From Cereibacter sphaeroides 2.4.1 (lineage in GTDB: Bacteria; Pseudomonadota; Alphaproteobacteria; Rhodobacterales; Rhodobacteraceae), in contig NC_007493.2 in NCBI RefSeq assembly GCF_000012905.2, forward strand, positions 1,920,001 to 1,952,000: a stretch of 32,000 bases of DNA, read 5' to 3'. A program made the translations under genes and the position numbers. Shown here in pieces: positions 734-25,333 of this stretch. Positions within the stretch are counted from its first letter, which is position 1, and every line of letters begins with the position of its first letter. The notes beneath the pieces are model-generated. The model ran no database searches and was not told where the DNA came from. It saw only the letters and a list, made by a program, of their open reading frames with translations.

Positions 734-737
734 TTCT

Positions 738-756: not shown

Positions 757-841
757 GGGTAGGACTGGAACCCGCTGCCGTTGTTATCCATCTGACGGGC
801 GCCTAAGCTGCTCTCGAATCATCAGCAAGGGATCGATCCTG

Positions 842-1120
842 ATGGACGAGTTGGCCACGTTCGACGAAGCGGACTGGGAAGATCTGACTGCCGCCGATAA
901 GAAGGCGCTGAAGACGTTCTCGCGAGTCTCCATGTCCTACGAACCGCTTGCAAAGGCCCCTGGCGTCGGTCAATTGAGCATGGATGCCTTGGTTGCAAAG
1001 GGTCTGGCCGAGGAAGGGCAGCCGTGCCTGCATGGCAGAACCTTCAAGCTGTCCGATAAGGGATGGCTTGCGGTCGAGTGGATCAATGGCCGGAAGACGA
1101 GAGTCTACCCTCGAGCATAA
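842..1120 (+). CDS. Hypothetical protein (92 aa), the only plus-strand gene of the element
   Basis: The internal ATG at 842 (MDELATFDEADWEDL...) is preceded by AAGGGA. The longer 695 start would lie inside the att repeat and terminator. No family recognised. Confidence 0.45.
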   Translation: MDELATFDEADWEDLTAADKKALKTFSRVSMSYEPLAKAPGVGQLSMDALVAKGLAEEGQPCLHGRTFKLSDKGWLAVEWINGRKTRVYPRA

Positions 1121-1132
1121 TCCCGGAACGGG

Positions 1133-2181: not shown

Positions 2182-2182
2182 G

Positions 2183-3244: not shown

Positions 3245-3245
3245 G

Positions 3246-3800
3246 TCAAAGCCTCCAGCGGTTGAGGTGGAAAGCCGCGCCGCGGAAGGGTTGCCGGTCC
3301 TGATGCGTTTCCCAGGATCGGGCCTCGATCTGCGCCTCGGGGTAGGCTGGCACTGTCACGGCCGACAGCTCGAACAGAGCCGCGCGGGTGATCGTGCGCA
3401 GCAGCCCTGCGCCGCGTTGCTCGATCCGCTCGCCCCCGGACTGGACGCGGAAGCCCGGCGACAGGCCCCGAACGAGGCCCGCCCGGTGAGCCGCAAGGAA
3501 GTCCTGCGCCCAGGAGGTGCCGCCCTCGATCCGCGCCTCGAGCACCAGCGCCGCGTCAGTGTCGGAAATGGTGAGGGAGCCCGCGGCCCGAGAGGCCAAC
3601 GGGCGGTTGTAGTCGTGGCCGGCGAGAAGGTGGATATCCTCGCCTGCCTCGATCCGGTCGGAGAAGGCCCGAGCGGCGATGACTTCTCGCCGTCCCGGTG
3701 CCAGCTCGGTTTCCGCGCCATAGGGGAACGTCGCCCGAAGGCGGGTTGCCCCGCCCTCGCTGCGCAGCTCCAGCGCGCCGAGAGACGCCCCCCAGAGCAT
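3246..3800 (-). CDS. HK97-family prohead maturation protease
   Basis: 184 aa. HLLAGHDYNRPLA ... LSPGFRV ... ELSAVTVPAYP resembles the HK97 prohead protease pattern. ATGA overlap with the capsid stop at 3800. Confidence 0.8.
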   Translation of the reverse strand: MLWGASLGALELRSEGGATRLRATFPYGAETELAPGRREVIAARAFSDRIEAGEDIHLLAGHDYNRPLASRAAGSLTISDTDAALVLEARIEGGTSWAQDFLAAHRAGLVRGLSPGFRVQSGGERIEQRGAGLLRTITRAALFELSAVTVPAYPEAQIEARSWETHQDRQPFRGAAFHLNRWRL

Positions 3801-5062: not shown

Positions 5063-5388
5063 GGGATCTCCTTTTGCTCGGTTGGCGCCTCCAGGTCGGA
5101 GACGGCTTGTCGCCACGCCACGCGGGCGGGATCGGGGTCAGGAATGCCGCACTCGCGCCGGGTGTGGCGCGTGTGGCAGGCAGGACAAAGGGAAGTCAGG
5201 TTGGACGGGTCGAACGACAGCTCGGGAGCCGTGCGAACGGGTTTCTTGTGGTGAACCTCCAGTCGGCCGCGCTTGCCGCACTCGGTGCAGGCCCAGCCGT
5301 CGCGCTCGAGGATCTGATGCCGCAGCACCTTCCAGCGCCGCGTCCGCAGCACCGGCCGAGAGAAGCGGGAGAAGCGGTCTAGAGCCAT
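5047..5388 (-). CDS. HNH endonuclease (packaging-associated)
   Basis: CTECGKRGRLEVHHKKPV...NLTSLCPACHTRH is a CxxC...HH...N...CxxCH HNH motif. It sits directly after TerL. Confidence 0.85.
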   Translation of the reverse strand: MALDRFSRFSRPVLRTRRWKVLRHQILERDGWACTECGKRGRLEVHHKKPVRTAPELSFDPSNLTSLCPACHTRHTRRECGIPDPDPARVAWRQAVSDLEAPTEQKEIPCSLP

Positions 5389-7052: not shown

Positions 7053-7336
7053 ACCCGCACCCCGCGGTATCGCGAGACGATGCGTGACGCGGCAAGGGAC
7101 AGGCCCATGGGCCTATCCTCTGTGCCACCGCGTGCGTCGAACAGCATGGCCGCCTGATCGCAGATCGCATAGGCCAGGTCGCTCGGCAGGGATGCACCCT
7201 CGGCCAGGGTGTAGCCTGCAGCCGCCAGCACGTCAGCCTGTGCAGCCGCAATCATCAGCTCCAGCGTTGCGTCCTCGTCGCTGAGGTCGATCCGCGCAAG
7301 CGCCTTAGTTGCAGAGAGAAGGTCGGGATTGCTCAT
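7031..7336 (-). CDS. gp6-like head-tail connector / DNA-packaging adaptor protein
   Basis: 101 aa. The N-terminal pattern KALARIDLSDEDATLELMIAAAQADVLAAAG is typical of the Phage_connect_1 (gp6-like) family. Confidence 0.65.
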   Translation of the reverse strand: MSNPDLLSATKALARIDLSDEDATLELMIAAAQADVLAAAGYTLAEGASLPSDLAYAICDQAAMLFDARGGTEDRPMGLSLAASRIVSRYRGVRVCLPTSE

Positions 7337-7397
7337 GCGCCAATACTAGATCAGCCGCAACTAACTGAGAATCCTAACACTTTATAACGCTGTCTAT

Positions 7398-7439
7398 CCG
7401 CACCGCAGTCAGGCCCTTAAGTATATGACTGCGGTGCGG
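7398..7439. repeat. Perfect 14-bp inverted repeat (CCGCACCGCAGTCA / TGACTGCGGTGCGG) with a 14-nt loop
   Basis: Read directly from the sequence. It lies between the RepA-like gene and the packaging operon. The CCGCAGTC/GACTGCGG 8-mer recurs at 7504-7511 and 7521-7528. Confidence 0.8.
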
Positions 7440-7498
7440 TGGTGGGGCTTACGCCCCCATACCACGCGCCCCACATGCATATTCCGCTCTCACCGCAC

Positions 7499-8836
7499 TC
7501 ATTCCGCAGTCGAGTGCGGAGACTGCGGATAGGCCGCGTTATGGTCCTCAGCCGGCATTCCCACCGTGATCGACGGAACGTCGCGCCCGTCCCGCAGCGA
7601 ACGGACGGTCTCCACCCGAAGCGCGCCGTTCCTGAGCCATGTGTTGATGAGGCTCGACACCCGACTGCGGGCGGCAATCTGGTCAGGGCCTTGCTGCGCC
7701 TTCGTCGTGCCGGGGGCGCCAACGTCCAAGCCCAGCGCGTCGGCTACGACATAGCCGGCCCAGTCCTTGCTGGTGGGCGCCTTGGCCGGCGGGGTCGCCC
7801 GCGCAGCAATGGCTTCCTGCACCCGCCGCAGGTCGTCCAGCTTGACGCCCTCGAACGCATCCGGCGGCGTCCATGCCGTGCAAACACCCACCTCGTCGCC
7901 CCGCGGATACTCGGGTGTAGCGTTGCCCAGAGGGACAGACTGCATCCGATACCAGGTGAACGCGCCCCCGCGGGCGGACATGTTGGTCTTGGCGCCGTCC
8001 ATCGCCCGGAAGATCCGCGCGGCTTCTGCGGGCGCAAGCCCCATCTTCTCGCCTTCCTCGAAGGTCATGGGTGCCAGCACGCGCCCCGCCCTGATACCGT
8101 CGCGAAAGGCAGAGCCGCCCCGGCCATCGTTGATGCTGTCTCCCGTCCCGGCCTTGTTCGCGTGATGGATCAACTCAATTGCGGCGTTGGTCTGGTTCGC
8201 CACGTCCCGCCATGCGTCGATCACGGCATTCATTGCGGTGTTGTCGTTCTCGGGAACCGTGTGGCAGGTGATGAACGGGTCGATAATCAAGGCGTCGATC
8301 CGGCGGGCTCGCATCTGCGCCACAAGCGCAGCCACCACGGGTTTTGCCACCTTCACGCCCTCACGGTCTGCCGCCGCGATCTTGATCGGCTGATCGCGCC
8401 CGCTATCCACATGCAGGCGCCCGCCGATCTCGTCGTCGCTGATGCCGTAATGGATGCAGGCCGCTTCAAGGCGCCGGCTGATTTCCTCAACCGGATCTTC
8501 GCCGCACCAATACCAGACGCGCAGGCCCTCGCGGGAATGCACCCAGCTATGCAACCGCTTCCGGCCGGTCGCCATGGCGAGCGCATCCACCAGCGCCAGC
8601 GATGATTTGCCGAGGCCGCCGGGGCTGATGGTGCCCGACAGCATCCGACGTTGCAGGTGGTAGCCGTAGAGCCACTGACGCGGGGGCGGAACGTTGCGGC
8701 GCCAGGTCGTCGGCGACAGCAGGCCGGATCGCGGCGGTTCTTCGTGGCCGGTTCCGGCGGCGTCGGACCCGAACTCGGCTCCGCATTCGGCCTCCACCTC
8801 CCTGCGCCAGGCGTCCGGGTCGTAGTGCCTCGTCAT
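7499..8836 (-). CDS. RecA-fold AAA_25 / RepA-like replication ATPase (helicase) of the element
   Basis: Walker A is GGLGKSS and Walker B-like is ALIIDPF, followed by IELIHHANK. It has a long C-terminal extension. ATGA overlap with the upstream small ORF. Confidence 0.75.
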   Translation of the reverse strand: MTRHYDPDAWRREVEAECGAEFGSDAAGTGHEEPPRSGLLSPTTWRRNVPPPRQWLYGYHLQRRMLSGTISPGGLGKSSLALVDALAMATGRKRLHSWVHSREGLRVWYWCGEDPVEEISRRLEAACIHYGISDDEIGGRLHVDSGRDQPIKIAAADREGVKVAKPVVAALVAQMRARRIDALIIDPFITCHTVPENDNTAMNAVIDAWRDVANQTNAAIELIHHANKAGTGDSINDGRGGSAFRDGIRAGRVLAPMTFEEGEKMGLAPAEAARIFRAMDGAKTNMSARGGAFTWYRMQSVPLGNATPEYPRGDEVGVCTAWTPPDAFEGVKLDDLRRVQEAIAARATPPAKAPTSKDWAGYVVADALGLDVGAPGTTKAQQGPDQIAARSRVSSLINTWLRNGALRVETVRSLRDGRDVPSITVGMPAEDHNAAYPQSPHSTAE

Positions 8837-9060
8837 GCCGCTGCCCTCCGCTGCCGGAGATAGGCGAGGAAAGCCGACTGGTGCTCAGGCTTCATCGCCT
8901 CGAACGCGGCCACGCAGACGGCCTTGCGGTATTCCTCGTGAGCGCCTTTGGCCCAGCGGCGCGCCTCAAGCATCGTCCCGCACCACGCGCTAGACGGAAC
9001 CTCCTGCCACGGCTTGCCGTAGAAGTCGCAGAGGGGGCAGAAGTGCGGACCCTGCATCAC
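8833..9060 (-). CDS. Hypothetical small protein (75 aa)
   Basis: In a translationally coupled chain: the previous stop is at 9057-9059 and there is an ATGA overlap with the repA-like start. CPLC motif near the N-terminus. Confidence 0.5.
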   Translation of the reverse strand: MMQGPHFCPLCDFYGKPWQEVPSSAWCGTMLEARRWAKGAHEEYRKAVCVAAFEAMKPEHQSAFLAYLRQRRAAA

Positions 9061-9269
9061 CGCGCCCCCTCAAAATAGCCGGTCAGCCCTTCGTCGGTCA
9101 GCGACTGCCGCACCTGATTTGCGTGCCCGGCCGAGAGGCAAAACACCGTCTCATCCGGTTCGCCAGGGCGATGCACGGAAATGACGCAGCGGCCGGCCAC
9201 GGTTTCGACGCGGAAGTGACCTTTGGCCTTGCGGGCCAGTAGCTCGTCTATGCTGTAAACGGCGAACAT
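9057..9269 (-). CDS. Hypothetical small protein (70 aa)
   Basis: The internal ATG at 9269 (MFAVYSIDELL...) forms an ATGA overlap with the alpA stop. The longer 9503 start would run through alpA in another frame. Confidence 0.5.
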   Translation of the reverse strand: MFAVYSIDELLARKAKGHFRVETVAGRCVISVHRPGEPDETVFCLSAGHANQVRQSLTDEGLTGYFEGAR

Positions 9270-9466
9270 CAGGCCACCTCGCGCGCTTCGGCCCGCGCGT
9301 CGAGCCACGCGAGCACCTCGGCCTCGCGCCAGTAGCGGCGGCGCTGAATGGTGACGGGTTTCGGGAATGCCATGGCGGGGTTGTTCAACCAGCGCCACAG
9401 GGACATGTCGCTGATGCCGCCACAGAGGGCGCGCACGGCGGCCGCGGAGATAAGCTTGCGTTCCAT
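9269..9466 (-). CDS. alpA: AlpA-family helix-turn-helix regulator / excisionase-like protein
   Basis: 65 aa. LCGGISDMSLWRWLNNPAMAFPKPVTIQRRRYWREAEVLAWL matches the AlpA (prophage CP4-57 regulatory) pattern. Confidence 0.8.
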   Translation of the reverse strand: MERKLISAAAVRALCGGISDMSLWRWLNNPAMAFPKPVTIQRRRYWREAEVLAWLDARAEAREVA

Positions 9467-9544
9467 TGGGGTGCCTCACGTTCGGTGACGTTAGGATTCC
9501 CAATGTTCAGATATTCCGCGGGACAGCGGCCTAGGTGTCCCAAT

Positions 9545-10201
9545 TTACTTGAAGCGGTCCCACTGTTTCTTGATGCCCTGCCAACCTCCCATTCCCTCCG
9601 CTTCGCATTGCCGTGCCGCATTCTCGACGCCAAGCTTGGGGACCAGTTCCGCCATCCGCGCGAACCGAAGGGTCCTCATCGGAATATGCCGCTGATTGGT
9701 CTTGTGCGCGGAGTTTAGCTGTCCTCCCGCAACCTTCTTTCCACGCGTCACGTGCTTAAGGTGGAGTCTGCGCGCGTTGAACCGACTGTGCGCCAGCCCC
9801 AGAAGCAGACTATGGGAAAAGACACTCTCCAGATTCCCGGCGGCGAGCGCTCGCTCCACCTCGATCACCTTCAAATAGAGGTCAGCAGCTTCATGTGGCA
9901 GCGTTAGCGGCTCGGCTTGCGCTCGTGTGAAAGCCCAGCCGGGAGAGATTGCCTTACCCACGGGCCTCTCGCCTTCTAGGCGTTTGCACCAAAAGCGCCC
10001 CTTGTGGAAGATCGCGGCACCCGGGTCTGGAAACCCATCCTGAACAATAATCTCGGCGAGCCTCTGTTTCAGCTCCGGCAGGTATTTGCTCGATGTAGGC
10101 CAATCTGCTGCAGCCTCTGCAAGCAGCGTCTCCCATTTCTCAGCAGAGACGACCTCTTTCTCCGTGCGGTGCATAGCATCAGACCAGACCTCCTTAGCCA
10201 T
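9545..10201 (-). CDS. Hypothetical protein (218 aa), accessory gene between int and alpA
   Basis: 8-nt overlap with the int stop. Visibly less G+C-rich than its neighbours. No recognisable motif. Confidence 0.55.
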   Translation of the reverse strand: MAKEVWSDAMHRTEKEVVSAEKWETLLAEAAADWPTSSKYLPELKQRLAEIIVQDGFPDPGAAIFHKGRFWCKRLEGERPVGKAISPGWAFTRAQAEPLTLPHEAADLYLKVIEVERALAAGNLESVFSHSLLLGLAHSRFNARRLHLKHVTRGKKVAGGQLNSAHKTNQRHIPMRTLRFARMAELVPKLGVENAARQCEAEGMGGWQGIKKQWDRFK

Positions 10202-11435
10202 GCTGGAGCCTCACCACGTTGTCCGCCTCCCCCTCCACCAGCGACAGAACGAACCGCGCCCAAGCCTCCAGCGCCTGCCGCTTCTCGTCGGCATAGTCGT
10301 GCCGTTGGTAGACCGCGACGATGCCGCCCCCTGTCCCGCTCACATGGTTCAGCACGGCCTCTGTCACCCGCACGGGGATGCCGAGCCGGGCCATGCCGGT
10401 CGCCGCCGTCCTGCGCAGATCATGGAAGGTCCAGCGCGGGATCTCGACGGGCTCGCCCCGCTCCTTCTGCGCGATGCCCACCATCGCCTCGGCCAGCACA
10501 GCGCGGGCCTTGAAAAAGCCGCTGACCGGTGTCCGGCCGGTCGTGGTGAAGATGAAGCGCACCCTGCCCTCCTCGTCCGTCACGCGCTCCACTTCGTCGA
10601 GCGCGGCGCGCACGGCCCCTGTCAGCGGCACATCGTGTGCCCGGCCGTTCTTTGTCCGGTCGGCTGTCAGGTGCCACAGGTCGCCGCGGATCTCGCTGTC
10701 CGTCATCTGCGCCACCTCGTTCAGCCGCTGGCCGGTGAGGAGCAGCACCTTGCCGAACGGCCCCCACGGGAAGCCCTCAGCCTCGCACGCCGTCCAGAAC
10801 CAGCGGATCTCGTCGTCGGTCAGCACGCGGGCACGGCTCGTCTCCTTACCGGCAGGCTTCACGCCGGCGGCCGGGCTCGTCGCCAGAATGTCCCGCTCGA
10901 CGCACCATCCGAAGAACTTGGCGAGATAGGCCCGGACGCGGTTCGCTGTGACGACGCGCCCGCTGTCCGCGATCCCGTCGAGAAGGTCGATCACGTCGCG
11001 CTTTCCGATCTGGTGAACGTCGCGCTCGCCCCACGCCGAAACGACGTGCCGCTCCAGCTCACGGCGCACGACCGCCCCGCTCTTGAGCTTGGACAGGTGC
11101 CGCTTGTCGAACTGGCCGATCAGGGTCTTGATCTTATCGCGATCGCCGTCGAGCTTCGGAGCCTTCGCGGCCTTGACCTCGGCCGCCGGATCGGTGCCGG
11201 CGCTCGCCGCGGCCAGGGTCTGCCGCGCCCGCTCGCGGGCGCCCGCGAGGGACAGCACCGGGAAGGCGCCGAGCGACATGCGCCGATGCACCCCGCCATG
11301 CCGATAACGGACCTGCCAGCCCTTCTTTCCGGTCGGCTGGACGATGAGATAGAGCCCGACGCAGAGGCTGTCCGGGATCTCCTGTCGCTTGTCTGTCGGC
11401 TTGATCTTCTCGACGCCCGCCGCACTCAACTTCAT
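10194..11435 (-). CDS. int: Tyrosine site-specific integrase (P4-like, N-terminal arm-binding DUF4102-type domain)
   Basis: Start taken at ATG 11435 (MKLSAAGVEKIKP...), with AGGAGG upstream. GLYLIVQPTGKKGWQVRYRHGG arm domain. C-terminal HDLRRT...LNH...VYQRHDY catalytic pattern. Confidence 0.9.
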   Translation of the reverse strand: MKLSAAGVEKIKPTDKRQEIPDSLCVGLYLIVQPTGKKGWQVRYRHGGVHRRMSLGAFPVLSLAGARERARQTLAAASAGTDPAAEVKAAKAPKLDGDRDKIKTLIGQFDKRHLSKLKSGAVVRRELERHVVSAWGERDVHQIGKRDVIDLLDGIADSGRVVTANRVRAYLAKFFGWCVERDILATSPAAGVKPAGKETSRARVLTDDEIRWFWTACEAEGFPWGPFGKVLLLTGQRLNEVAQMTDSEIRGDLWHLTADRTKNGRAHDVPLTGAVRAALDEVERVTDEEGRVRFIFTTTGRTPVSGFFKARAVLAEAMVGIAQKERGEPVEIPRWTFHDLRRTAATGMARLGIPVRVTEAVLNHVSGTGGGIVAVYQRHDYADEKRQALEAWARFVLSLVEGEADNVVRLQHG

Positions 11436-11451
11436 GTCAATTGGTCCTCCT

Positions 11452-11497
11452 GGGGAACAGTCTGGGGAACAGAGTTGCTTGTTTCCGTCGTTCCCCC
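11452..11497 (+). repeat. GGGGAACA x2 direct (11452-11459, 11464-11471) plus one imperfect inverted copy (GTTCCCCC 11490-11497)
   Basis: Lies between the int start and the right att repeat. Same motif and orientation as at 738-756. Confidence 0.45.
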
Positions 11498-11599
11498 ATG
11501 TTCTAACAGTCCCCAACATATAGCGACGAAATACCGTTTTTGCAACGAGTTGTGGCGTCCGATAGTTTTGACGCGTTTGGTTGTGTGACGCTGCCGGGA

Positions 11600-11710
11600 T
11601 TGACTGTTAATCAATTGGTCGTAGGTTCGATCCCTACCGCCGGAGCCAAAAGTCCCTGAGGGATCAGCTACATGAGAAAAGCCCGCCTCTGGCGGGCTTT
11701 CCTGTTTTCC
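11600..11710. repeat. Right attachment-site repeat: displaced 3' half of tRNA-Asn (11600-11648) plus a terminator copy
   Basis: See 623-733. It lacks the 5' half of the tRNA, so it is not a functional tRNA gene. Confidence 0.9.
11679..11707 (+). terminator. Second copy of the tRNA-Asn terminator (loop TCT instead of ACC)
   Basis: AAGCCCGCC-tct-GGCGGGCTT followed by TCCTGTTTT. Confidence 0.65.
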
Positions 11711-14090: not shown

Positions 14091-14675
14091 GCAATCCCCG
14101 AGTGCTTGCCACCAATGAAAGCCGCACTGATACAGCGGGAAACCGGCACGGCAAGAGCACCCCTAAAATGTATGGGGTTATGCGGCGCATAAGGCTGAAC
14201 GGTCGGACACCCCACCCGACTGGGCAGGCCGGCAAGAACACCTTTGTCGGGAACACCTCTCTTGCGCTGAGACTGCAGCGCCCCCCAATACCGCCGCTCT
14301 TGCATCGGCCGATCGCAACGACAAGGCCGGGCATCGTGGACCGAAGGTACTTTATTCGCAACGCCTTGTTGCGTCCGCCTGGCGAAGGGAAAATGACCCG
14401 GAAGCAGGCTGACGACGCAATCTCCGCTTTCAAGAATTTCGTGGTGACCGGGAAATGCATTTCAACGCCGCAGAAAACGTCCAGTCCCAGATACCGGCTT
14501 TGCAGATGCCGGTCGCCCTAAATACCGCCCCCGAAGCGCGTATGCCCCAGAACCAGCAGATCGTGCTACTCAAGCGCGACGAGATATTCAGCGGCATTCG
14601 AGCAGCTGGCGTGCCGGAGGGTTCGAGATGAAGCCTTCTTCGAAGATCGCGTTCAGTTGCCGGAAGCCAACAAGT

Positions 14676-14953
14676 TCATTTGAGGAGTGTGAGATTGGGC
14701 ACCCTATGCATCTCGCCGCAGCCGCGGGGGCAAAGGATGCTGCCGGGCTCGATCACCTGCTCGATCCGTTCATCGGCTCCGATGATGGGAAGGGCCATCA
14801 CTGGCCCTCCTTCTTCAGCACCACCACGGCGGCGCGATCTGCGCCGATGCACCCCGCCTCGCGGGCGAGCTTGTAGAGCCGCTTCAGCGCGTCGGCGCGG
14901 CGGTACGCGGCCGAGCTCTCGCGCTCAGGCGTGCGAGGTGAGCAACGAGGCAT
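14676..14953 (-). other. Two short translationally coupled ORFs (51 aa at 14798-14953; 40 aa at 14676-14798), possibly remnants of larger genes
   Basis: My own translation; both are below the ORF-track cut-off. ORF1 ends ...VVVLKKEGQ-TGA. The TGATG junction and GAAGGAGGG RBS precede ORF2 (MALPIIGADERIEQ...). Coding-looking stretches continue downstream in shifted frames. Confidence 0.3.
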
Positions 14954-14975
14954 ACCAATGACATCAAGCTAGAAA

Positions 14976-15442
14976 ATGGTTCGCTGGGAGGAGTCGATAC
15001 GACACGCCTACGAAGAGCGACTGCGCCGCTTTCCGGATGATCCTCCTCTCGGATGGCGGCTGCTCTACAGTCCCCGACACGTTCTCACTGGCGCCACCGC
15101 GGCATTCATTGGATTGAATCCGGGAGGTGCTGCGCTTGATCCAACCCATGGGGAGTTCTCTTCGGAGACCCGAACCAGTACAACGCCGAGGCGCTGAAGG
15201 CGATCGCGGCCGGCACCCACAATGGCAAGTTCATGACGGCCCACACCGCCGAGAAGCTCGGCGAGGTGTTCCGCGGCGCCGCCGGGCACCGCGGCCGCTT
15301 CGCCAAGGGCGAGGCCACGGCCTTCGTGATCGACGCCTCCGGCTCGATGTTCTCCGAGCGGATGGACGGCCGGCCCCGCATGCAGGTGGTCAAGTCGGCG
15401 ATGTACGGCCTGATCGCCTACAAGCAGGCCAACTGGTCGTAA
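14976..15442 (+). pseudogene. Gene fragments: an N-terminal fragment with FIGLNPGG, frame-shifted into a vWA-like fragment (AFVIDASGSM MIDAS motif)
   Basis: ORF 14976-15197 breaks off. In another frame, 15140-15442 reads ...VLFGDPNQYNAEALKAIA...ATAFVIDASGSMFSE... and stops about 40 aa after the DxSxS motif, which is too short for a vWA domain. Confidence 0.4.
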
Positions 15443-15512
15443 CGACCCCGACCATGGCCCGGGCTTCTTCCGGGCCATGGTTCCCCTTCCCACCAGCCAA
15501 GGATCTCCTGCT

Positions 15513-15998
15513 ATGACCATTACCTTTCGCACCCCGCACCGGATCCCCAGCCCGCGCGTCGCGCCGTCGACGCGCCCGAGGGGTCTCACGCCCGTCACCG
15601 GCCCGATCCCCGACACCCTCACTGGCCGCATCTTGCTGCTCGTCGACGCAGAAAACCTGGTGCTCTCGGCGCGTGACCTCGACGTCGCCCTCGACTTCGA
15701 GGCGCTGCGAGCCGCATTTGCCCGCTACGACCGGCGCCAGGTCGAATGCCATGCGGTCTATTCCCAAGACATCGGCGACGGCCCGCTCGCGGTGCATCTG
15801 GTGCGGCGCGGCTGGCACCCGACGCCTCGCCCCCCGATCCAGCGCCTGCCCGCCGACCGTGGGCACCGCAATGCTGACAACTGGTTCGTCTTCGTCGCCG
15901 CGCGCAGCCTCCGCTCTGTTGGGAAGGAAGAGGACGTGCCTACGGCGAGAAGGAATGGCCGGTATCGGTCAGGCACTCACTACGCTACGGTCGGATAG
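15513..15998 (+). pseudogene. NYN (LabA/DUF88-like) domain gene, apparently truncated at its 3' end
   Basis: ILLLVDAENLVLSARDL...DF and HRNADNWFV match the first two acidic motifs of NYN domains. The expected distal GDxD-type motif is absent, and the reading frame runs into lower-G+C DNA at about 15,915. Confidence 0.5.
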
Positions 15999-16091
15999 CT
16001 ATCAGCCGGTACCGCGGCCGTTGCGGGAGTTGTATGGAGGGCTAGTGATTGGCTACCGTGATGATCGGTCGTTCTTGACGAGGGTTCTCAG

Positions 16092-18629
16092 ATGAAGGCT
16101 TTCTTAAAGCTTCTCAGAATTTTTTTCTTCTTTGTTGTCTATTTCTGCATCGCCCTATTGATCGTTGCTTTTGGTCTTCAGAGTTGGCCGGTTGGCGGCC
16201 AGATGCTCTTTGCGTTTGGCGCCCCTGTTTTTCTGATCTGGTGGCAAGAGAGGAGGCGATCGCGAAAAGTCCCCACGAAAGCTATTGCCGAGGGAAGTTT
16301 GGAAACGCGAACCTCCCGACCTGAGCCGGTACCGCGCCAGAGTACCTACGAAGATCGTATTGAGCGCGAACGAACTCGCGAAGCCAATGCTTCCAAAGCA
16401 CCGGTTGGCGTTCAGGCCTATTCCTCACCAAAGCAGGACTACGCCGAGATCGTTCGCGCTGGAAGGTCTGCAGCGCCAGCTCTTGCGGCGGTCGTTGAAC
16501 GAAACCAGCCCGTGCGCGCTGTATCGAGCACATCGACCCAATCAACGAAAAGTGGGTGGGTCCCGTCTGGCGAAACAGCTAGCGTGGCCGGCCGCAACAT
16601 CGGCGGGATGGTCTATGTCGGCACGCCTCCCCTGCTGAACACCTACGGGTATCGTGACAAGTGCCGAGCCTATATCGATCCGTCCCTATCGGTCGCGCGC
16701 TCTGGATCCGACAAAGCTGGTGAGGGGATGCCCTATTGGCCAGGGTACTCGGACATCTCACCCCAGTGCAGGGCGACCTACCTTGATTGGCTGGCCAGCG
16801 GGCGAAACGATGCCTCCTACAACCCCGGCTACATGTTCCTGTACTTCTACGGGTTGGAGCGTCGCTTCTTCGTCGATCAGTCGAACGAAGATGTCAAGGA
16901 TATCGTCCAGGAGGTTCGGCGGCTGCAGTCGCTTTACCCTGACAACCACTCGGTCAGACGCTATTTGGGTGAGTTCCTTGACATTGCGATGCTTGCCGAA
17001 ACCGACCTCGACGCTATCGAGCCGATTCTTGAGAAGCAGGGCTGGGAACTTCCGTTCTCACTCAAATACGCAATTGGAGCTCGGATCGACAAAGGCGAGA
17101 ACCTGACGGCTGACTGGTTGCTGAGTTGGTTCATGTGCCATCCGGAAACAAATCTGAGAACTCCCGCGACTCGGTGCCGTGACGAGTTCATCGCTCTTTT
17201 CCGCATGCGGTTTGATCGGCGTTTTCCTGATGGGCTCAAGGTGACCAAACCCCGGAAGTCACTCACGGCATCCTATCGAGCCGCTTCCAGCGAGTTTCAG
17301 GGGTCCGCCAACCCAACCGTGGACGGCAAGCCTGTCCCGGATATTTCCGGTCTGCGCAAACCGGTCGAGATTGCCCAAGAGTTGGCTGACGAGGTGATGA
17401 ACGATCTCGACAAGCTCAGTCGCTTCTTGGGCCGAAATCCTGACGGCCGCGGAAGCGTGGAAGCGCATGCCTTGTTGCCCTCTGATCTATGGGAAACATT
17501 CCCGTCAGAGGAAATGGACCGGTTGAAATCATGGGCAAGCGATATCGTCGATCGGGACGGATTGGTGTCGCTTGAGGAGGTGATCGGACGTCTGGAGGGA
17601 GAAACGAACGAGAAGATCGGGAAGCGGCAGATGACAGGAGCGGCCGACGCGCTCGCGCGTCTCGGTTTCGGTCTGGCGCCCGACCCTCGGTTTGCGCTCC
17701 GATCGCCCAAGGCGGAAGAGCCTGTTGTGCTGTTCGACCTAAGCGAACCCATCGAAAGACTGGAGGAAGTTTCCGACAGCTATCGAAGCGCCTTGATGGA
17801 ATTGGCACTTGGGTCGTTCGTCGCACATGCGGATGGTCGGATCGCGGAGCCTGAGCGCAGAGCGCTGGAAGATCAAGTTTCTGCCGCGGCCCTCAGCGAT
17901 CAGGAACGCCGCAGGCTGCGCGCGAACCTTGAATGGTTCCTCGCCGTGCCACCGGACATGACGCTTCTGCGGCGCAAACTGAAGGAGGTTGGTCAAGATA
18001 GCCAGGCTGCCATCCGTGCAGCGCTGGTTGGTGCAGCAAATGCAGATGGAATTATTCACTCCGACGAAGTCGCGAGCATCGAGAAGGTCTACAAGGCTTT
18101 GGGCCTCGACCCTGCGCTTGCCTACTCGGACCTTCACGCCGGCGAAATTGTGGATGGTCCCCGCACTGTTCGTGCCTCGCAACCGGGCCGTGCAGGCGAA
18201 TCGATACCCGATCTTGAAAAAGCCAGCGGGCCTAAACTCGATGCTTCACGGATCGCGGCGATCCGTTCGGACACCGAGCGCGTCTCGTCTGTCCTTGGTC
18301 AGATTTTCGATGTCGAAGAGGAAGAGAGCGGTGTCTCCGCGTCTGCCAATCAAAGCCAGTTGGCAGGGCTTGACCCGAAACACAGCGCCCTTGTTCTCGA
18401 ATTGGTTAATCGGGAGCATTGGTCTGAAACCGAGTTCGAGAAGATATGCACCTCGAAGGGTTTGATGGCGTCGGGCGCTTTGGAAGCCGTGAATGAATGG
18501 GCCTTTGAGAACTACGATGAAGCGCTTCTCGAGGAATATGATGGATACGACGTGTCTCCGGACATTGCGGAGGCAGTAAAGGAAAAAATGAATGCGGAGG
18601 GCGGGGATGTCGAAGCTGAAACCACGTGA
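16092..18629 (+). CDS. sngA: Membrane-anchored TerB-N / TerB / TerB-C domain protein (Shango SngA-like)
   Basis: 845 aa. Two N-terminal hydrophobic helices. WVPSGETASVAGRNIGGMVYVG...YWPGYSDISPQCRATYLDWLASGR...GYMFLYFYGLERRFF (TerB-N-like). VAHADGRIAEPERRALE and ANADGIIHSDEVASIEKVY (TerB-like repeats). Acidic C-terminal module with LVNREHWSETEFEKIC...ALEAVNEWAFENYD (TerB-C-like). Confidence 0.8.
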   Translation: MKAFLKLLRIFFFFVVYFCIALLIVAFGLQSWPVGGQMLFAFGAPVFLIWWQERRRSRKVPTKAIAEGSLETRTSRPEPVPRQSTYEDRIERERTREANASKAPVGVQAYSSPKQDYAEIVRAGRSAAPALAAVVERNQPVRAVSSTSTQSTKSGWVPSGETASVAGRNIGGMVYVGTPPLLNTYGYRDKCRAYIDPSLSVARSGSDKAGEGMPYWPGYSDISPQCRATYLDWLASGRNDASYNPGYMFLYFYGLERRFFVDQSNEDVKDIVQEVRRLQSLYPDNHSVRRYLGEFLDIAMLAETDLDAIEPILEKQGWELPFSLKYAIGARIDKGENLTADWLLSWFMCHPETNLRTPATRCRDEFIALFRMRFDRRFPDGLKVTKPRKSLTASYRAASSEFQGSANPTVDGKPVPDISGLRKPVEIAQELADEVMNDLDKLSRFLGRNPDGRGSVEAHALLPSDLWETFPSEEMDRLKSWASDIVDRDGLVSLEEVIGRLEGETNEKIGKRQMTGAADALARLGFGLAPDPRFALRSPKAEEPVVLFDLSEPIERLEEVSDSYRSALMELALGSFVAHADGRIAEPERRALEDQVSAAALSDQERRRLRANLEWFLAVPPDMTLLRRKLKEVGQDSQAAIRAALVGAANADGIIHSDEVASIEKVYKALGLDPALAYSDLHAGEIVDGPRTVRASQPGRAGESIPDLEKASGPKLDASRIAAIRSDTERVSSVLGQIFDVEEEESGVSASANQSQLAGLDPKHSALVLELVNREHWSETEFEKICTSKGLMASGALEAVNEWAFENYDEALLEEYDGYDVSPDIAEAVKEKMNAEGGDVEAETT

Positions 18630-19914
18630 ACGAGATGCAATCGTGCAGGCTCTTCGGGCGGGGGTCGTGCCCAAGCTCGGGTTGCGTCATATACAGGTCG
18701 GCCGCGTCCGGGAAATCGAAGAACTCGTCAAAGACATGGATCGGATATCCGATGGCGGTTCGGCCATTCGGTTCATCATCGGCGAATACGGGTCCGGCAA
18801 GACGTTCTTCATGAACCTGATCCGCCTTGTTGCCCTCGAGAAGGGTCTGGTGGTGATGTTTGCGGACCTGGCGCCCGACCGGCGTATTCATGCGACCGGC
18901 GGACAAGCCCGAGGGCTCTATGCTGAGATGGCTCGTAACCTGTCGACGCGGACGAAGCCCGATGGTGGGGCTTTGGCCAGTGTGGTGGAGCGTTTCGTCA
19001 GCCAGGCTCACCGCGATGCTGAGGAACGCGATGTGCCCACGGGGTCAGTCATTCGTGAACGCCTCGGCCACTTTGAAGAACTTACTGGGGGTTTTGAGTT
19101 CGCTGAAGTCATCCGTCGATATTGGGAAGGCCATGAGACAGGTGACGACGAGCTGAAATCCGCAGCATTGAGATGGCTGCGCGGTGAATTCGCGACACGC
19201 ACAGACGCGCGCAAGGCGCTCGGCGTACGCACGATCATCGATGATGCCAGTGTCTACGACCATCTGAAGCTGATGTCAGCATTCGTGTGCGAGGCCGGCT
19301 ATAAGGGTTTGCTCGTCGGCCTCGACGAGATGGTAAACCTCTACAAGCTAACCTCGTCGCAGGCCCGTAATGGCAACTACGAGCAGATTCTTCGGATCCT
19401 CAACGACGTGCTGCAAGGCAGCGCTGAAAACCTCGGCTTCCTGATGGGCGGGACACCGGAATTCTTGATGAACACCCGCCGAGGGCTCTACAGCTACGAG
19501 GCCCTTCAGTCGCGTTTGGCCGAGAACACCTTCGCGCGAGACGGTTTGGTCGATCTTTCGGGGCCTGTTGTTCGGCTGGCCAGCCTGACCCCGGAGGACC
19601 TCTTCGTTCTTCTGGCCAATGTTAGGCGGATCATGCAAGACGACACCGATGCTTTGCCGGACGCCGCGCTCGAGGCTTTCATGGCGCATTGTTCGGATCG
19701 GATCGGCGAAGCCTACTTCCGGACGCCACGCAATACGGTAACGGCCTTCGTGAACCTGCTTTCTGTGCTCGAGCAAAACCCCGGAGTCGAATGGAGCGAT
19801 CTGATCGAAAAGATCGAAGTCTCCGAAGACCTCGGTGAAGACATGACTGAGGTGGACGAGTCTACCGATGCCCATGACCCTAGTGACGACGATCTGATCA
19901 GCTTCAAGCTCTGA
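18607..19914 (+). CDS. sngB: DUF2791 / BrxC-BrxD-like P-loop ATPase (Shango SngB-like)
   Basis: ATG at 18607 with GGAGG 6 nt upstream; 23-nt overlap with sngA. MSKLKPRERDAIVQALRAGVVP..., Walker A GEYGSGKTFF, Walker B LLVGLDEM. Confidence 0.8.
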   Translation: MSKLKPRERDAIVQALRAGVVPKLGLRHIQVGRVREIEELVKDMDRISDGGSAIRFIIGEYGSGKTFFMNLIRLVALEKGLVVMFADLAPDRRIHATGGQARGLYAEMARNLSTRTKPDGGALASVVERFVSQAHRDAEERDVPTGSVIRERLGHFEELTGGFEFAEVIRRYWEGHETGDDELKSAALRWLRGEFATRTDARKALGVRTIIDDASVYDHLKLMSAFVCEAGYKGLLVGLDEMVNLYKLTSSQARNGNYEQILRILNDVLQGSAENLGFLMGGTPEFLMNTRRGLYSYEALQSRLAENTFARDGLVDLSGPVVRLASLTPEDLFVLLANVRRIMQDDTDALPDAALEAFMAHCSDRIGEAYFRTPRNTVTAFVNLLSVLEQNPGVEWSDLIEKIEVSEDLGEDMTEVDESTDAHDPSDDDLISFKL

Positions 19915-19919
19915 CGCCG

Positions 19920-22091
19920 ATGAGCAGTGCGTTCGACAAGCTGGCGAGGCCTGTGCAGAAATGGATACGCCAGCAAGGATGGCGCGAGCTTCGCGACGTC
20001 CAGGCGCGATCCATCAGGACGATCTGCGAGACCAACGCTGATTTGATCGTTGCGGCATCGACAGCGGGCGGAAAGACGGAGGCGGCGTTCCTGCCTTTAA
20101 TTTCCCAGGTGCTCGACGCGCCTGCCAACGGCACCGGCTTCGACCTGCTCTACATCGGTCCGCTGAAAGCGTTGATCACGGATCAGGCCATGCGGCTGGA
20201 GGACATCTGCCAAGAGACAGAACTACCAGTTGTCCCGTGGCACGGGGATGTTTCACAGTCGATCAAGACGCGCGCGTTGAAATCTCCCAAAGGGATCCTG
20301 CTGATAACCCCAGAGTCCCTTGAAGCGCTTTTCATACGTCGCGGTTTGGAAATCGCGCGCCTGTTTGGGGTCACGCGGGCGGTTGTGATCGACGAGTTGC
20401 ACACGGTTCTTGATAGCGAACGCGGTGTCCAGCTTCGTTCACTGCTCACAAGGCTTGAGCTCGCCCTAAGGCGTCCCATCCGACGCATAGGTCTGTCGGC
20501 TACGCTTGGCGACATGGAGCTCGCCAAGGCCTATCTGCGCCCGGACTCCGCAAAATCTGTCCAGCTCATCCAAGCAGAAGGTGGCGACGCTGAATTGCGG
20601 CTCCAGCTTCGCGGCTATTTGTCAGGCGATGAGGATGAAAGCAGCCAATCCGCAACGGACGCCATCGCAAACCATTTGTTCAAGCAACTTCGAGGCAGCG
20701 ACAACCTTGTATTCGCAGGGGCACGGCAGCGAGTAGAGATCTACGCGGATCGGTTGCGTGAGCTTTGTGAAAAGGAACACCTGCCGCAGGAATTCTATCC
20801 CCACCACGCCAGTCTCTCCCGCGAACACCGCGACTTCGTGGAGCGCCGCCTTAAGGATCCTGCGAAACCGACAACCGCGGTCTGCACGTCGACGCTCGAG
20901 CTTGGAATCGACATAGGTGACGTGACCTGCGTGGCCCAAATCGGGGCGCCATTCAGCGTCGCGGCGTTGCGACAACGTCTCGGCCGGTCAGGTCGGCGCG
21001 AGGGACAGCCAGCCATACTCAGGCAGTACGCTGTCGAAACCAAGCTTACCACAGAGAGCAGTTTTGTTGATCGCCTTCGCCTCGGCCTGATCAGGTCGAT
21101 AGCAATGATTGACTTGTTGCTGGAAGGTTGGTGCGAGCCGCCGAAACCGGAGGCGCTTCACCTTTCGACTCTCGTCCACCAGATACTTTCGATTATTGCT
21201 GAGCGCGGCGGTGCTTCTGCGAACGTTATCTACAACGTGCTGTGTCGCGAGGGCCCCTTCCGAAAGGTCACGACCGAAGTTTTTGCGAATGTACTGCGTG
21301 CGATCGGTCATCCTGAAACTGATCTGATCGAACAGTCTAGAAGCGGGCTCCTACTCCTGGGCAAGACGGGCGAAAGGCTAGTCGAGCATTACAGCTTTTA
21401 CGCCGTATTCCAGACACCTGAGGAATTCCGGTTGGTTGCAGATGGGCGAGACCTTGGCACCCTGCCGGTCGACAATGTTCTCGTCCCAGGTATGTTGCTG
21501 ATCTTCTCCGGGCGTCGTTGGGTGGTTCAAGAAATCCATGATTTAGAGAAGGTCATCGTGGTTAAGCCCGCAAAAGCAGGAGTGCCTCCAGTCTTTGGCG
21601 GCGACCCGGGTGACATTCATGACAAGGTAATCGAACAGATGTTCGCAGTCCTCGAAGGGGATTTCAAACCCGTGTACATGGACGCGGTTGCCCATACTAT
21701 GCTCGAGGAAGCACGTGCTCACTACGACCAACTGGAGTTTCAGGCCAATAACATCCGCAGTCTTGGTGAGCATACATGGATCATCGCAACGCGGTTCGGG
21801 ACGGTGAAGACATCAACGTTAGCGCTTGCACTGAGAAGCGAAGGGTTCTTGGTCGAGCAACATGACGGGTTCTTGGTAGTTGAGGCCGGGGATGAAACAC
21901 CAGATCTTCAAATGGTGCTTGCACGGTTGTCGGCCGGATACACGGGCGACATCTTCGCCGGCGCTGAAAACCTGATCACGGAGAAGTTTCATGTTTACTT
22001 GTCGCGACCTCTTCTGGAGCTGGATGCTGTATCATCGCGGCTTGTGCCTGGTCTTCTTCCGGGGATGACCAGTAGAATCTTGCAAGCGTGA
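19920..22091 (+). CDS. sngC: Lhr-like DEAD/DEAH-box (DExH) helicase (Shango SngC-like)
   Basis: Starts 5 nt after the sngB stop. Motifs: I AASTAGGKTEAA, II VVIDELH, III LSATLG, V TSTLELGIDIG, VI QRLGRSGRR. About 330 aa of C-terminal extension resembling the Lhr WH/DEAD_assoc region. Confidence 0.85.
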   Translation: MSSAFDKLARPVQKWIRQQGWRELRDVQARSIRTICETNADLIVAASTAGGKTEAAFLPLISQVLDAPANGTGFDLLYIGPLKALITDQAMRLEDICQETELPVVPWHGDVSQSIKTRALKSPKGILLITPESLEALFIRRGLEIARLFGVTRAVVIDELHTVLDSERGVQLRSLLTRLELALRRPIRRIGLSATLGDMELAKAYLRPDSAKSVQLIQAEGGDAELRLQLRGYLSGDEDESSQSATDAIANHLFKQLRGSDNLVFAGARQRVEIYADRLRELCEKEHLPQEFYPHHASLSREHRDFVERRLKDPAKPTTAVCTSTLELGIDIGDVTCVAQIGAPFSVAALRQRLGRSGRREGQPAILRQYAVETKLTTESSFVDRLRLGLIRSIAMIDLLLEGWCEPPKPEALHLSTLVHQILSIIAERGGASANVIYNVLCREGPFRKVTTEVFANVLRAIGHPETDLIEQSRSGLLLLGKTGERLVEHYSFYAVFQTPEEFRLVADGRDLGTLPVDNVLVPGMLLIFSGRRWVVQEIHDLEKVIVVKPAKAGVPPVFGGDPGDIHDKVIEQMFAVLEGDFKPVYMDAVAHTMLEEARAHYDQLEFQANNIRSLGEHTWIIATRFGTVKTSTLALALRSEGFLVEQHDGFLVVEAGDETPDLQMVLARLSAGYTGDIFAGAENLITEKFHVYLSRPLLELDAVSSRLVPGLLPGMTSRILQA

Positions 22092-22310
22092 CGATCCCGA
22101 TGGCAAACGTTCGATCTCTGTTCCATCTCACCGAGCGCGACCGGCGTCGAAGTGTTCAGGTCGAAACTTGGGAAATTCAATTCTACCAATAGCTTACAGG
22201 CTATTCACCAAATCGGCGCAGTCATGAGGTCCAGAGAATATCAGCCCTGAGAGACCGCTTCCGGGCCACGTGGCAGCAGGGCCAGTGCTCAGCCCCTCCC
22301 GCATAACTAT

Positions 22311-22344
22311 CGAAAACAACGGAAAAATCCGGCCGCAGCCGGAT
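22311..22344 (-). terminator. Rho-independent terminator of tRNA-Ser
   Basis: On the minus strand, ATCCGGC-tgcg-GCCGGAT is followed by TTTTTCCGTTGTTTTCG. Confidence 0.7.
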
Positions 22345-22370
22345 GGGGAGAACGCTTTCGCAGGGGCAAG

Positions 22371-23505: not shown

Positions 23506-23952
23506 CTACCACCTGCCCCGGCCGAAATCTGCGGACGTCAAAGCCCCGTCACCGTCCCTGTCGCGCCAGGCGAACCAGGATCCGGTGCTTCCGACGAACT
23601 CGTCCCGGCTCACCCGGCCGTCGCCGTCGCGGTCGAGGCGGCCGGGACCGTCGGGGCCCGCCGCTCCGGAAGTGCCGACCCGGGACGCCCTCCCCGCTGC
23701 GGCGCGGTTGGCCTCCTGCATCGCCGCACGCATGGCCCCCATGTCGGCCAGTTCCTGCGGGCCGAGCGCCCCATCGCCGTCGCTGTCGAAGGCGTCGAAC
23801 AGGTCGGCCCTGCGGCTCTGCGCCTCCCCGAGCGTGACGCGGCCGTCGCCGTCCGCATCCCACTGCTCGACAAACATCGCGCCCGGGGTCTGGGCCGCGG
23901 CTCCCGTGACCTGCAGCATGAAGACCAGCGCCATCGCATCTCGTCCGAACAT
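23506..23952 (-). CDS. Secreted EF-hand calcium-binding protein (four DxDxDG loops)
   Basis: ATG at 23952 with GAGGAG upstream. Signal-peptide-like MFGRDAMALVFMLQVTGAAAQ. Loops DADGDGRVTLGE, DSDGDGALGPQE, DRDGDGRVSRDE, DRDGDGALTSAD. Confidence 0.75.
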   Translation of the reverse strand: MFGRDAMALVFMLQVTGAAAQTPGAMFVEQWDADGDGRVTLGEAQSRRADLFDAFDSDGDGALGPQELADMGAMRAAMQEANRAAAGRASRVGTSGAAGPDGPGRLDRDGDGRVSRDEFVGSTGSWFAWRDRDGDGALTSADFGRGRW

Positions 23953-24283: not shown

Positions 24284-25333
24284 ATGCCGCGACCAGTCAG
24301 CCTCGCCTCCCTCGCAACCGCCGTGCCTCCCCATCGCGTCACCCAACGCGAGGCGGCGGAGGCCGCCCATGGCGGCTTCGCGGCCCGCTACGACGATTTC
24401 GCCCGCCTTGCGGCCGTGTTCGAGACCTCGGGGATCCGCACCCGTCATCTGGTGCGCCCGGTCGAATGGTATCTGCAACCGCTCGGCTGGGAGGCCCGCA
24501 ACGCCGCCTATCTCGAAGCAGCAGAGGCCCTGTTCATCGAGGCCGCCACCGCCGCACTCGAACGGGCCTCGCTGAGCGCGGCCGAGGTGGACACGGTGGT
24601 GACGATCTCCTCGACCGGAATCGCCACGCCCAGTCTCGAGGCGCGCGTGGCCGACAGGATGGGGTTCCGGAGCGACCTCGAACGCGTCCCGGTCTTCGGC
24701 CTCGGCTGCGCGGGCGGCGTCTCCGGGCTCGGCCTCGGGGCACGCCTCGCCGCCGCGCGGCCGGGCAGCACCGTCCTCGTCGTGGCGGTCGAGCTCTGCT
24801 CGCTGTCATTCCGGCTCGACCGGCTGACGAAGGAGAACATCGTCGCGACGGCGCTGTTCGCCGACGGGGCGGCAGCCGCGGTGCTGCGGGCCGTCGACGG
24901 GCCGCTGACGGTCGAGATGGCGGGCCAGCACTCCTGGCCGCAGACGCTCGACATCATGGGCTGGCATGTCGACGACGGCGGGCTCGGCGTGATCTTCGAC
25001 CGGGCGATCCCGCCCTTCGCCGAGGCCCATGTGGCAGGGGCCATCGAGGCGATCCTCGGCCGCGCGGGGCTGACGCGGGCGGAGGTCGACCGCTTTGCCT
25101 GCCATCCCGGCGGAGCCAAGGTCATCACGGCGCTCGAACGCTCCCTGTCGCTCGAGCAGGGCACGCTCGATCACGAGCGCGAGGTGCTGGCCCAGAATGG
25201 CAACATGTCCGCGCCGACCGCTCTCTTCGTGCTCGCGCGCGTGCTGAACGCCGAGCCGCCACCCCGCACCCTCCTCACCGCGATGGGGCCGGGCTTCACC
25301 GCCAGCTGCGTCTCGCTTCAGGCGGCGGCATGA
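24284..25333 (+). CDS. Type III polyketide synthase (chalcone/stilbene synthase superfamily)
   Basis: 349 aa with AGGAG RBS. Candidate Cys-His-Asn triad: GLGCAGGVSG, CHPGGAKVI, GNMSAPTALFVL. Confidence 0.85.
   Translation: MPRPVSLASLATAVPPHRVTQREAAEAAHGGFAARYDDFARLAAVFETSGIRTRHLVRPVEWYLQPLGWEARNAAYLEAAEALFIEAATAALERASLSAAEVDTVVTISSTGIATPSLEARVADRMGFRSDLERVPVFGLGCAGGVSGLGLGARLAAARPGSTVLVVAVELCSLSFRLDRLTKENIVATALFADGAAAAVLRAVDGPLTVEMAGQHSWPQTLDIMGWHVDDGGLGVIFDRAIPPFAEAHVAGAIEAILGRAGLTRAEVDRFACHPGGAKVITALERSLSLEQGTLDHEREVLAQNGNMSAPTALFVLARVLNAEPPPRTLLTAMGPGFTASCVSLQAAA

Follow-up and report, generated by a model that had tools for sequence, protein, structure and literature searches.

Three closely packed genes at positions 16092-22091 of a 32,000-nucleotide (nt) stretch of Cereibacter sphaeroides 2.4.1 (NC_007493.2, positions 1,920,001 to 1,952,000; the species is called R. 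sphaeroides below, and the whole stretch, to which all coordinates refer, the window) raise the question of whether they form an anti-phage system that is already known and, if so, how their products might act. The operon is almost certainly a complete and intact Shango system (SngA-SngB-SngC), carried on a horizontally acquired cassette of ~6.4 kb beside a tRNA-Ser gene on chromosome 1. Its genes and immediate setting are as follows.

16092-18629, + strand: sngA, long form, TerB_N-TerB-TerB_C protein of 845 amino acids (aa) (open reading frame (ORF) call, PADLOC SngA, Pfam)
18607-19914, + strand: sngB, BrxD-like ATPase of 435 aa (PADLOC SngB, PF10923)
19920-22091, + strand: sngC, superfamily 2 (SF2) DExH helicase of the Lhr/BrxHI clade, 723 aa (PADLOC SngC, DEAD, Helicase_C)
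15950-22370, no strand: low-GC segment holding the operon, horizontally acquired cassette (GC content, plasmid matches)
22371-22460, - strand: tRNA-Ser(GGA), 3' end facing the cassette (ARAGORN; Rfam tRNA, 54.6 bits)

Each of the three proteins had the corresponding Shango profile as its top PADLOC match, with near-complete coverage: SngA at 4e-106 (355 bits; aa 115-832 aligned with positions 13-526 of the 528 in the profile), SngB at 3.5e-176 (585 bits; positions 4-436 of 439) and SngC at 5.4e-273 (906 bits; positions 3-708 of 720). These scores are in the range of those given by the Shango copy of an E. coli IncF plasmid (350, 618 and 935 bits). The sequence features by which Shango is recognized were all found, namely a SngA with TerB_N, TerB and TerB_C domains in addition to its profile match, a SngB that is a PF10923 P-loop ATPase with Walker A and B motifs, a SngC that is an SF2 DEAD/DEAH helicase matching its own profile, and an uninterrupted A-B-C gene order on a single strand. 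The Shango systems of E. coli and P. aeruginosa PA14 (Millman et al. 2022; Johnson et al. 2022/2023) have the same trio in the same order, and protection against phages by the E. coli and P. aeruginosa systems has been shown experimentally (10.1101/2022.05.11.491447; 10.1101/2022.11.11.516204). A defence role for Ter domains is cited as having been proposed in a comparative-genomics paper of 2012.

The first-pass annotation of this DNA had already read the locus as Shango, from three same-strand genes with a 23-nt overlap and a 5-nt gap, and the profile matches uphold that reading, the spacing being exact when sngB starts at ATG 18607. Among the Pfam families that it had named, TerB_N, TerB, TerB_C, PF10923 (BrxC_BrxD, formerly DUF2791), DEAD and Helicase_C were detected, whereas DEAD_assoc gave no match in SngC, a lenient Pfam scan included. 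Its ranking of the operon as the best candidate for new biology was too high, as the system was named in 2022 and an 87%-identical cassette is already in print as Shango (PMC10221251). The operon is an ordinary member of a described system, which standard defence-finder profiles call as Shango automatically.

Other systems that contain TerB domains fit the locus less well. The tellurite-resistance (ter) operon shares with it only the TerB domain inside SngA; the set terZ, terA, terC, terD and terE is not present, and no TerC or TerD families were found in the neighbouring gene tables. Bunzi (BnzA) and Dionysus (DinB), as well as the TerB of the tellurite operon, resemble Shango in having a TerB domain and a proposed membrane association, but the partners in Bunzi and Dionysus are lipid-binding or pore-forming, whereas those of SngA are an ATPase and a helicase, which sets the locus apart from both; in PADLOC, SngA was the sole TerB-protein match of the first gene. 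With the SngA of enterobacterial plasmid Shango, the R. sphaeroides protein has the core (aa ~150-830) in common, at ~32% identity over this core.

The gene starts were also considered. The longest ORF for the second gene is 18592-19914 (440 aa), which would extend the overlap with sngA to 38 nt; the start at ATG 18607 is the one used by gene callers, has a GGAGG six nt upstream and gives the 23-nt overlap. For sngA, a GAGGG lies 7 nt upstream of ATG 16092, and the protein is 100% identical to one recorded in R. sphaeroides. In several public assemblies sngA is called from an internal start, giving 681 or 633 aa (window 16092-16583; loci L001, L003 and L004), and consequently the anchor hairpin and linker described below are removed from the annotated protein; in related plasmid records the annotated protein is long, with 842-847 aa. 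The anchor evidence and the GAGGG before ATG 16092 both speak for the long form here. No fourth conserved gene accompanies the trio.

SngA has an unusually clear layout of anchor, linker and core, with the following parts, in which disorder was judged from the predicted local distance difference test (pLDDT) of the AlphaFold model and constraint from the ratio of nonsynonymous to synonymous substitution rates (dN/dS).

16092-16268, + strand: N-terminal helical hairpin, aa 1-59, predicted N-in/C-in membrane anchor (hydropathy, AlphaFold 2, conservation)
16269-16553, + strand: disordered linker of variable length, aa 60-154 (pLDDT, dN/dS)
16563-17168, + strand: TerB_N, aa 158-359 (PF13208, 9.6e-69, full length)
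17169-17801, + strand: conserved middle region without a Pfam family, aa 360-570 (AlphaFold)
17802-18116, + strand: TerB with two ADGxIxxxE repeats, aa 571-675 (PF05099, 4.5e-9)
18222-18578, + strand: TerB_C, aa 711-829, preceded by an acidic low-confidence stretch (PF15615, 6.2e-25)

Two hydrophobic stretches separated by a short uncharged loop were found at the N-terminus, the first at residues ~10-29, with a Kyte-Doolittle 19-residue mean of up to 2.89, and the second, shorter one at residues 37-51. The AlphaFold model (133-sequence alignment, mean pLDDT 86) showed helices at residues 2-27 and 34-59 with pLDDT 84-89, disorder at 60-150 (linker pLDDT 40-66) and a very confident core at 155-690; hydropathy and model are thus in agreement with the two hydrophobic helices that had been noticed at this end of the protein. 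As K2, K6 and R9 precede the hairpin and RRRSRK follows it, the positive-inside rule predicts that the hairpin is N-in/C-in and that the TerB modules all lie in the cytoplasm, and SngA may signal from the membrane, as was first suggested.

A strongly hydrophobic N-terminal segment was present in most of the 120 closest SngA homologues, the exceptions being mostly short calls or fragments, and tblastn matches covered residues 1-845 in most of 80 species loci, down to ~48% identity. The SngA of the E. coli IncF plasmid starts with a hydrophobic helix, MELLKFLAAIFVIYLLFF, followed by RKKKRK, so that a single helix plus KKKRK stands there in place of the two-helix hairpin and ~100-aa linker of the R. 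sphaeroides protein; in neither copy does the PADLOC SngA profile reach the hydrophobic N-terminus. Judged from these sequences, a hydrophobic anchor recurs across the SngA family and is not peculiar to the R. sphaeroides copy. Against the copies of a Ruegeria plasmid and of Stappia, which were used for all dN/dS values, the hairpin had a dN/dS of 0.13-0.18 and is therefore constrained coding sequence, whereas the linker was relaxed (0.33-0.35), with an alignment occupancy of 0.38. No part of SngA is less conserved than anchor and linker, which together measure ~100 aa in the family member P0089 and ~390 aa in P0114. Among 1.84 billion cluster representatives searched, SngA had matches to 3016 clusters at E<=1e-10, which share the core (aa ~150-830).

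The first ~180 nt of sngA (16092-16270) differ from the related plasmid cassettes described below, with a synonymous divergence (dS) of 1.7-2.3 and 59-61% aa identity compared to a dS of ~0.26-0.5 in the rest of the gene. Megablast matches to these cassettes start only at 16176 or 16361, and two versions of the SngA N-terminus are circulating (MKAFLKLLRI... and MSSLLKFFRI...). Taken together, these data suggest recombination at the 5' end of the gene.

In the core, TerB_N was modelled with pLDDT >90 and had a dN/dS of 0.07-0.08, with R227 and E256 invariant and the motif GYxFLYFYGLERR conserved. The TerB repeats are AHADGRIAEPE (578-588) and ANADGIIHSDE (649-659); among 133 SngA family members, D581, E588 and D652 are conserved in at least 90% and E659 in at least 70%, and Foldseek matched this domain to the TerB-like structure 2h5n with probability 1.0. 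Both ADG repeats are intact in R. sphaeroides SngA, unlike in the E. coli IncF copy (L010, 5719-8028), in which the first is degenerate (ALIDDSLDQAE) and the second keeps SDGxIxxxE. In TerB_C, aa 760-830 reached pLDDT 96-98. Pfam and motifs thus agree with the TerB-N block, the pair of TerB repeats and the acidic TerB-C tail of the first-pass annotation.

The middle region, also with pLDDT >90, belongs to no Pfam family even at E<=5. It has helices at 473-487, 494-502 and 511-523 and strands at 491-493, 526-529 and 544-549, and from the order of secondary structure residues 473-549, and likewise 762-821, could be winged-helix-like. Foldseek related SngA to MarR/LysR DNA-binding domains weakly (E >2, probability 0.7-0.9; aligned residues not specified). 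With the SngA model as query against the PDB and viral predicted structures there was no match at E<=1e-3, nor was any match at this threshold attributable to TerB_N or the middle region, though both fold confidently; a sequence search of solved structures with SngA gave no match.

The second protein, SngB, matched BrxC_BrxD (PF10923) at 9.6e-153 and has the Walker A motif GEYGSGKT (nt 18781-18804) and the Walker B motif LLVGLDE, as had been read from its translation. It also matched the PADLOC BrxD profile at 8.2e-47 (158 bits vs. 585 for the SngB profile) and scored 155 bits with the NCBIfam model BREX_BrxD NF033438, whose cut-off is 350; a sequence search of solved structures gave no match. 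In SngC, motif I (AGGKT), motif II (DELH, nt 20391-20402), motif III (SAT), TSTLELGID and motif VI (QRLGRSGRR) are present, as expected from the full DExH helicase set first claimed for it, and the PADLOC BrxHI profile matched at 2.2e-113 over aa 2-641 (378 bits vs. 906 for the SngC profile).

The label Lhr-like given earlier to SngC is borne out by its best solved-structure relatives, the mycobacterial Lhr structures 5v9x and 7lhl (~1e-28), and by its best NCBIfam models, which are of Lhr type (ligase-associated DEXH helicase, Lhr) but all below cut-off (223 vs. 850, 165 vs. 849 and 110 vs. 1496 bits). The WH_Lhr domain was detected after the second RecA-like domain at a sub-threshold E of 0.022. 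A bona fide Lhr helicase passes the curated cut-offs and has a winged-helix plus DEAD_assoc region; SngC does neither, and its gene context differs. Lenient Pfam scans of the C-terminal 359 aa of SngC, of the SngA middle region and of the SngA N-terminus produced only sub-threshold matches.

The profile matches make SngB homologous to BrxD and SngC to BrxHI, the two partners in type 2 bacteriophage exclusion (BREX). The BrxD and BrxHI genes of type 2 BREX (Pgl) are adjacent, likewise sngB and sngC, while the partner in Shango is a TerB protein. The locus itself is not BREX: the Shango profiles outscore those of BrxD and BrxHI, the proteins do not reach the level of BrxD and BrxHI equivalogs, and no pglX methyltransferase, pglZ, brxC or pglW was found in ~10 kb on either side of the operon in gene tables with Pfam families. 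According to a 2026 comparative study that does not mention Shango, BrxD is an AAA+ ATPase of ORC/Cdc6 type that pairs tightly with BrxHI and is proposed as its loader or activator; in BrxHI, the SF2 core is combined with a winged helix, a beta-barrel and, at the C-terminus, an Lhr-like domain (PMC12839542). In a 2024 phylogeny, SngC, BrxHI, DruE and DpdJ fall into a single SF2 clade associated with defence (PMC12278908).

The three proteins differ in how fast they change. The dN/dS was 0.15-0.16 for sngA, 0.016-0.03 for sngB and 0.09-0.12 for sngC, values that indicate purifying selection on each of them. Between species SngB is the best conserved, followed by SngC and then SngA: where SngA is ~50% identical, SngB is ~85% and SngC ~69% identical, and SngB is 97% identical where SngA and SngC are at ~87-88%.

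No mechanistic study of Shango was found in the literature searched to mid-2026, from which papers in subscription journals may be missing. Our tentative proposal is direct interference, with SngA as a membrane-tethered sensor or scaffold, SngB as a loader and SngC as a translocase on phage DNA. Through its N-terminal hairpin and the floppy linker of ~100 residues, SngA would be tethered to the inner membrane on the cytoplasmic side, and its core (TerB_N, winged-helix-like middle region, TerB repeat pair and TerB_C) would face the phage and respond to the trigger. SngB, a BrxD-related ORC/Cdc6-type AAA+ ATPase, would then load or activate SngC, the Lhr/BrxHI-clade DExH helicase, whose substrate would be incoming or replicating phage DNA and whose ATP-driven movement on it would stop the phage directly, without killing of the host cell. 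That SngA is the fastest-evolving of the three proteins was counted for its sensor role.

Several observations weigh against this proposal. The faster evolution of SngA could reflect mere weaker constraint. A hydrophobic segment (at least one) was found in 49 of the 103 top SngA representatives whose N-terminal extension is 30 aa or longer, that is, about half of them have none, and therefore membrane tethering may not be essential. The structure model of SngC (mean pLDDT 52, from a shallow alignment with 75-92% identity) is unusable. Finally, Pfam, PADLOC, NCBIfam and structure searches revealed neither a nuclease nor a toxin nor any other effector domain in SngA, SngB or SngC, and arrest of a phage by helicase action alone therefore lacks explanation.

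A more specific and somewhat more speculative form of the proposal is that the anchored SngA marks Shango as a guard at the site of DNA entry through the membrane, where the fast-evolving SngA would sense a phage cue and SngB would load SngC as BrxD is proposed to load BrxHI. If true, Shango and type 2 BREX would share one loader-helicase engine under different sensors.

The same anchor could serve abortive infection, in which SngB and SngC would sense phage nucleic acid, and the SngA hairpin would oligomerise, depolarise the inner membrane and kill the cell. The lack of any other effector domain would be accounted for in this way, the hydrophobic hairpin is conserved under purifying selection, Bunzi and Dionysus pair TerB with membrane or pore-forming parts, and SngA aa 12-59 resembles Cpta_toxin, at a sub-threshold and not significant E of 0.033. 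However, the hydrophobic segment is missing from about half of the extended SngA representatives and is a single helix in the enterobacterial plasmid copy, and conservation within the protein is lowest in anchor and linker, so that we consider a membrane-killing role for SngA unlikely.

The GC content falls from ~0.67 to 0.52-0.54 at ~15950 and stays low up to the tRNA-Ser(GGA), the cassette having 0.52-0.62 compared to 0.66-0.73 (about 0.70) outside it; therefore, the operon makes up essentially all of the ~6.4-kb foreign segment. Cassettes with 86-87% nt identity were found on 13 plasmids from Sulfitobacter, Ruegeria, Roseovarius, Phaeobacter, Paracoccus, Sagittula and Pseudohalocynthiibacter, with matches that run from window position 16176 or 16361 to ~21909-22027 and in 12 of the 13 cover at least 80% of the query; among all 16 plasmids with any cassette match, 13 are conjugative or mobilizable. 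One of these cassettes, on plasmid 4 of Sulfitobacter faviae SCSIO W1865, is tabulated as Shango, with SngA at 1-2544, SngB at 2522-3829 and SngC at 3835-6012 (PMC10221251), and has 87% nt identity and the same 23-nt overlap and 5-nt gap. The R. sphaeroides copy is chromosomal and adjoins tRNA-Ser, whereas these Roseobacter-group relatives are on plasmids. The flanking chemotaxis-receptor and EF-hand genes are also found on CP047037.1 and CP047031.1, and every contig with those exact proteins carries the operon. No integrase bounds the cassette, and no attachment-site repeat was found, either of the tRNA-Ser 3' end or of any sequence bounding the cassette, beyond chance-level matches of 14-18 nt.

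In a scan with one genome per species, at least 581 genomes encode a SngA relative. The best 80 SngA loci were sampled for synteny; in the 68 with at least 3.6 kb downstream, SngB always adjoins SngA, and SngC comes next in 66, both exceptions having a truncated sngB. Relatives in other genomes have further defence systems as neighbours. In Phaeobacter inhibens these are Gabija-like and CBASS-like genes, in Stappia a Gabija-like pair, together with an integrase, and on a Ruegeria plasmid AbiE and a SIR2 gene. On the E. coli IncF plasmid (L010), a Lit-family phage exclusion gene lies directly upstream of Shango. Decayed copies were also seen. In L008 (10432-13532) sngB is shortened and an opposite-strand gene of 468 aa stands between sngB and sngC, and in L020 and L049 sngB is truncated and sngC undetectable.

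SngA matches were present on 678 plasmids, including those of Klebsiella, Salmonella and E. coli, and 539 of these plasmids are conjugative. This distribution, together with that of the near-identical cassettes (13 of 16 on conjugative or mobilizable plasmids), would be compatible with a main target other than phage, such as competing plasmids and conjugative elements, and a membrane-proximal entry of DNA may be common to conjugation and phage injection. Such a target would be compatible with anti-phage action. We nevertheless give it little credence as the main one, as the published tests demonstrate anti-phage activity, the carrier plasmids evidently persist alongside Shango and no anti-plasmid data for Shango were found in the literature searched.

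Taking phage as the probable target, it has still to be asked whether this copy works. The 2 kb upstream of it consist of pieces of genes, a search 5' of sngA gave no sigma-70-like promoter, and some copies elsewhere have decayed (L008, L020 and L049), as might be expected of an inactive remnant whose ORFs were kept by chance. This is very improbable, however: the three frames are intact with their catalytic motifs present, and the dN/dS against two relatives is 0.02-0.16, which together with the conserved motifs supports the first judgement that the operon is intact and likely active. The promoter and terminator scan gave counts that did not exceed those of shuffled sequence, and such an E. 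coli-type scan means little in a 70%-GC alphaproteobacterium. That the operon is not for defence at all but a stress-response module of Ter type or a DNA-repair module, with an Lhr-like repair helicase and accessory proteins, would fit the ligase-associated DEXH helicase and Lhr as best NCBIfam models of SngC and the first description of TerB in tellurite resistance, but is extremely improbable given that those models score far under their cut-offs (223 vs. 850 bits, compared to 906 bits for the SngC profile), that no terC, terD, terZ, ligase or other repair gene is nearby, and that the operon has an atypical GC content, plasmid-borne relatives and a defence-island setting.

Around the cassette, the interval from the chemotaxis-receptor gene to sngA (14100-16000) contains fragments only. 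These include a 69-nt piece of an IS66-family transposase at ~14700-14770, an ORF of 69 aa (15233-15442) with a von Willebrand A motif resembling a metal ion-dependent adhesion site, VIDASGSM (VWA_2, E 0.016), and an ORF of 161 aa (15513-15998) without a family match; Pfam, NCBIfam and PADLOC gave nothing significant for the upstream ORFs between 14.1 and 16.0 kb. A NYN/PIN-like domain in the ORF 15477-15998 was considered and was unsupported by the same three resources, and a conserved small upstream gene was rejected, as the 69-aa ORFs of the window and of Phaeobacter are unrelated. On the far side of tRNA-Ser there is an EF-hand protein gene (23506-23952, - strand), followed by a high-GC host cluster up to ~27400 with a type III polyketide synthase-like gene (24284-25333), an isoprenylcysteine carboxyl methyltransferase-family gene and a major facilitator superfamily transporter. 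The Rfam scan of the window found two tRNAs only.

Further upstream, tRNA-Asn (597-671) is the integration site of an element of ~11 kb (597-11708), which is flanked by direct repeats of 109 nt (623-731 and 11600-11708) with 95% identity. Its recognizable genes include the following.

2183-3244: portal protein
3800-5116: capsid protein
5379-7052: large terminase
7499-8836: AAA_25 replication-type ATPase
10194-11519, - strand: integrase

A head-tail connector, an HNH protein and an S78 protease are also carried, and no tail genes were seen between 597 and 11708. This gene content suggests a phage satellite that forms its own capsids (cf-PICI-like) or, alternatively, a prophage that is much reduced.

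The locus adds little by itself, as standard profiles identify it as Shango and close relatives are already so labelled in print. Its value is practical, in that it provides an intact, native and chromosomal Shango in a well-studied and tractable alphaproteobacterium, with an unusually clear anchor-linker-core arrangement of SngA. For these same reasons, the R. sphaeroides copy could be used as a model in which to study the working of Shango and, more generally, of TerB domains in defence, and the idea of a guard at the membrane is testable there since the host is genetically tractable and has a native chromosomal copy. For the family, the recurrent SngA anchor, the conservation order SngB > SngC > SngA and the homology of the SngB-SngC pair with BrxD-BrxHI may guide later work.

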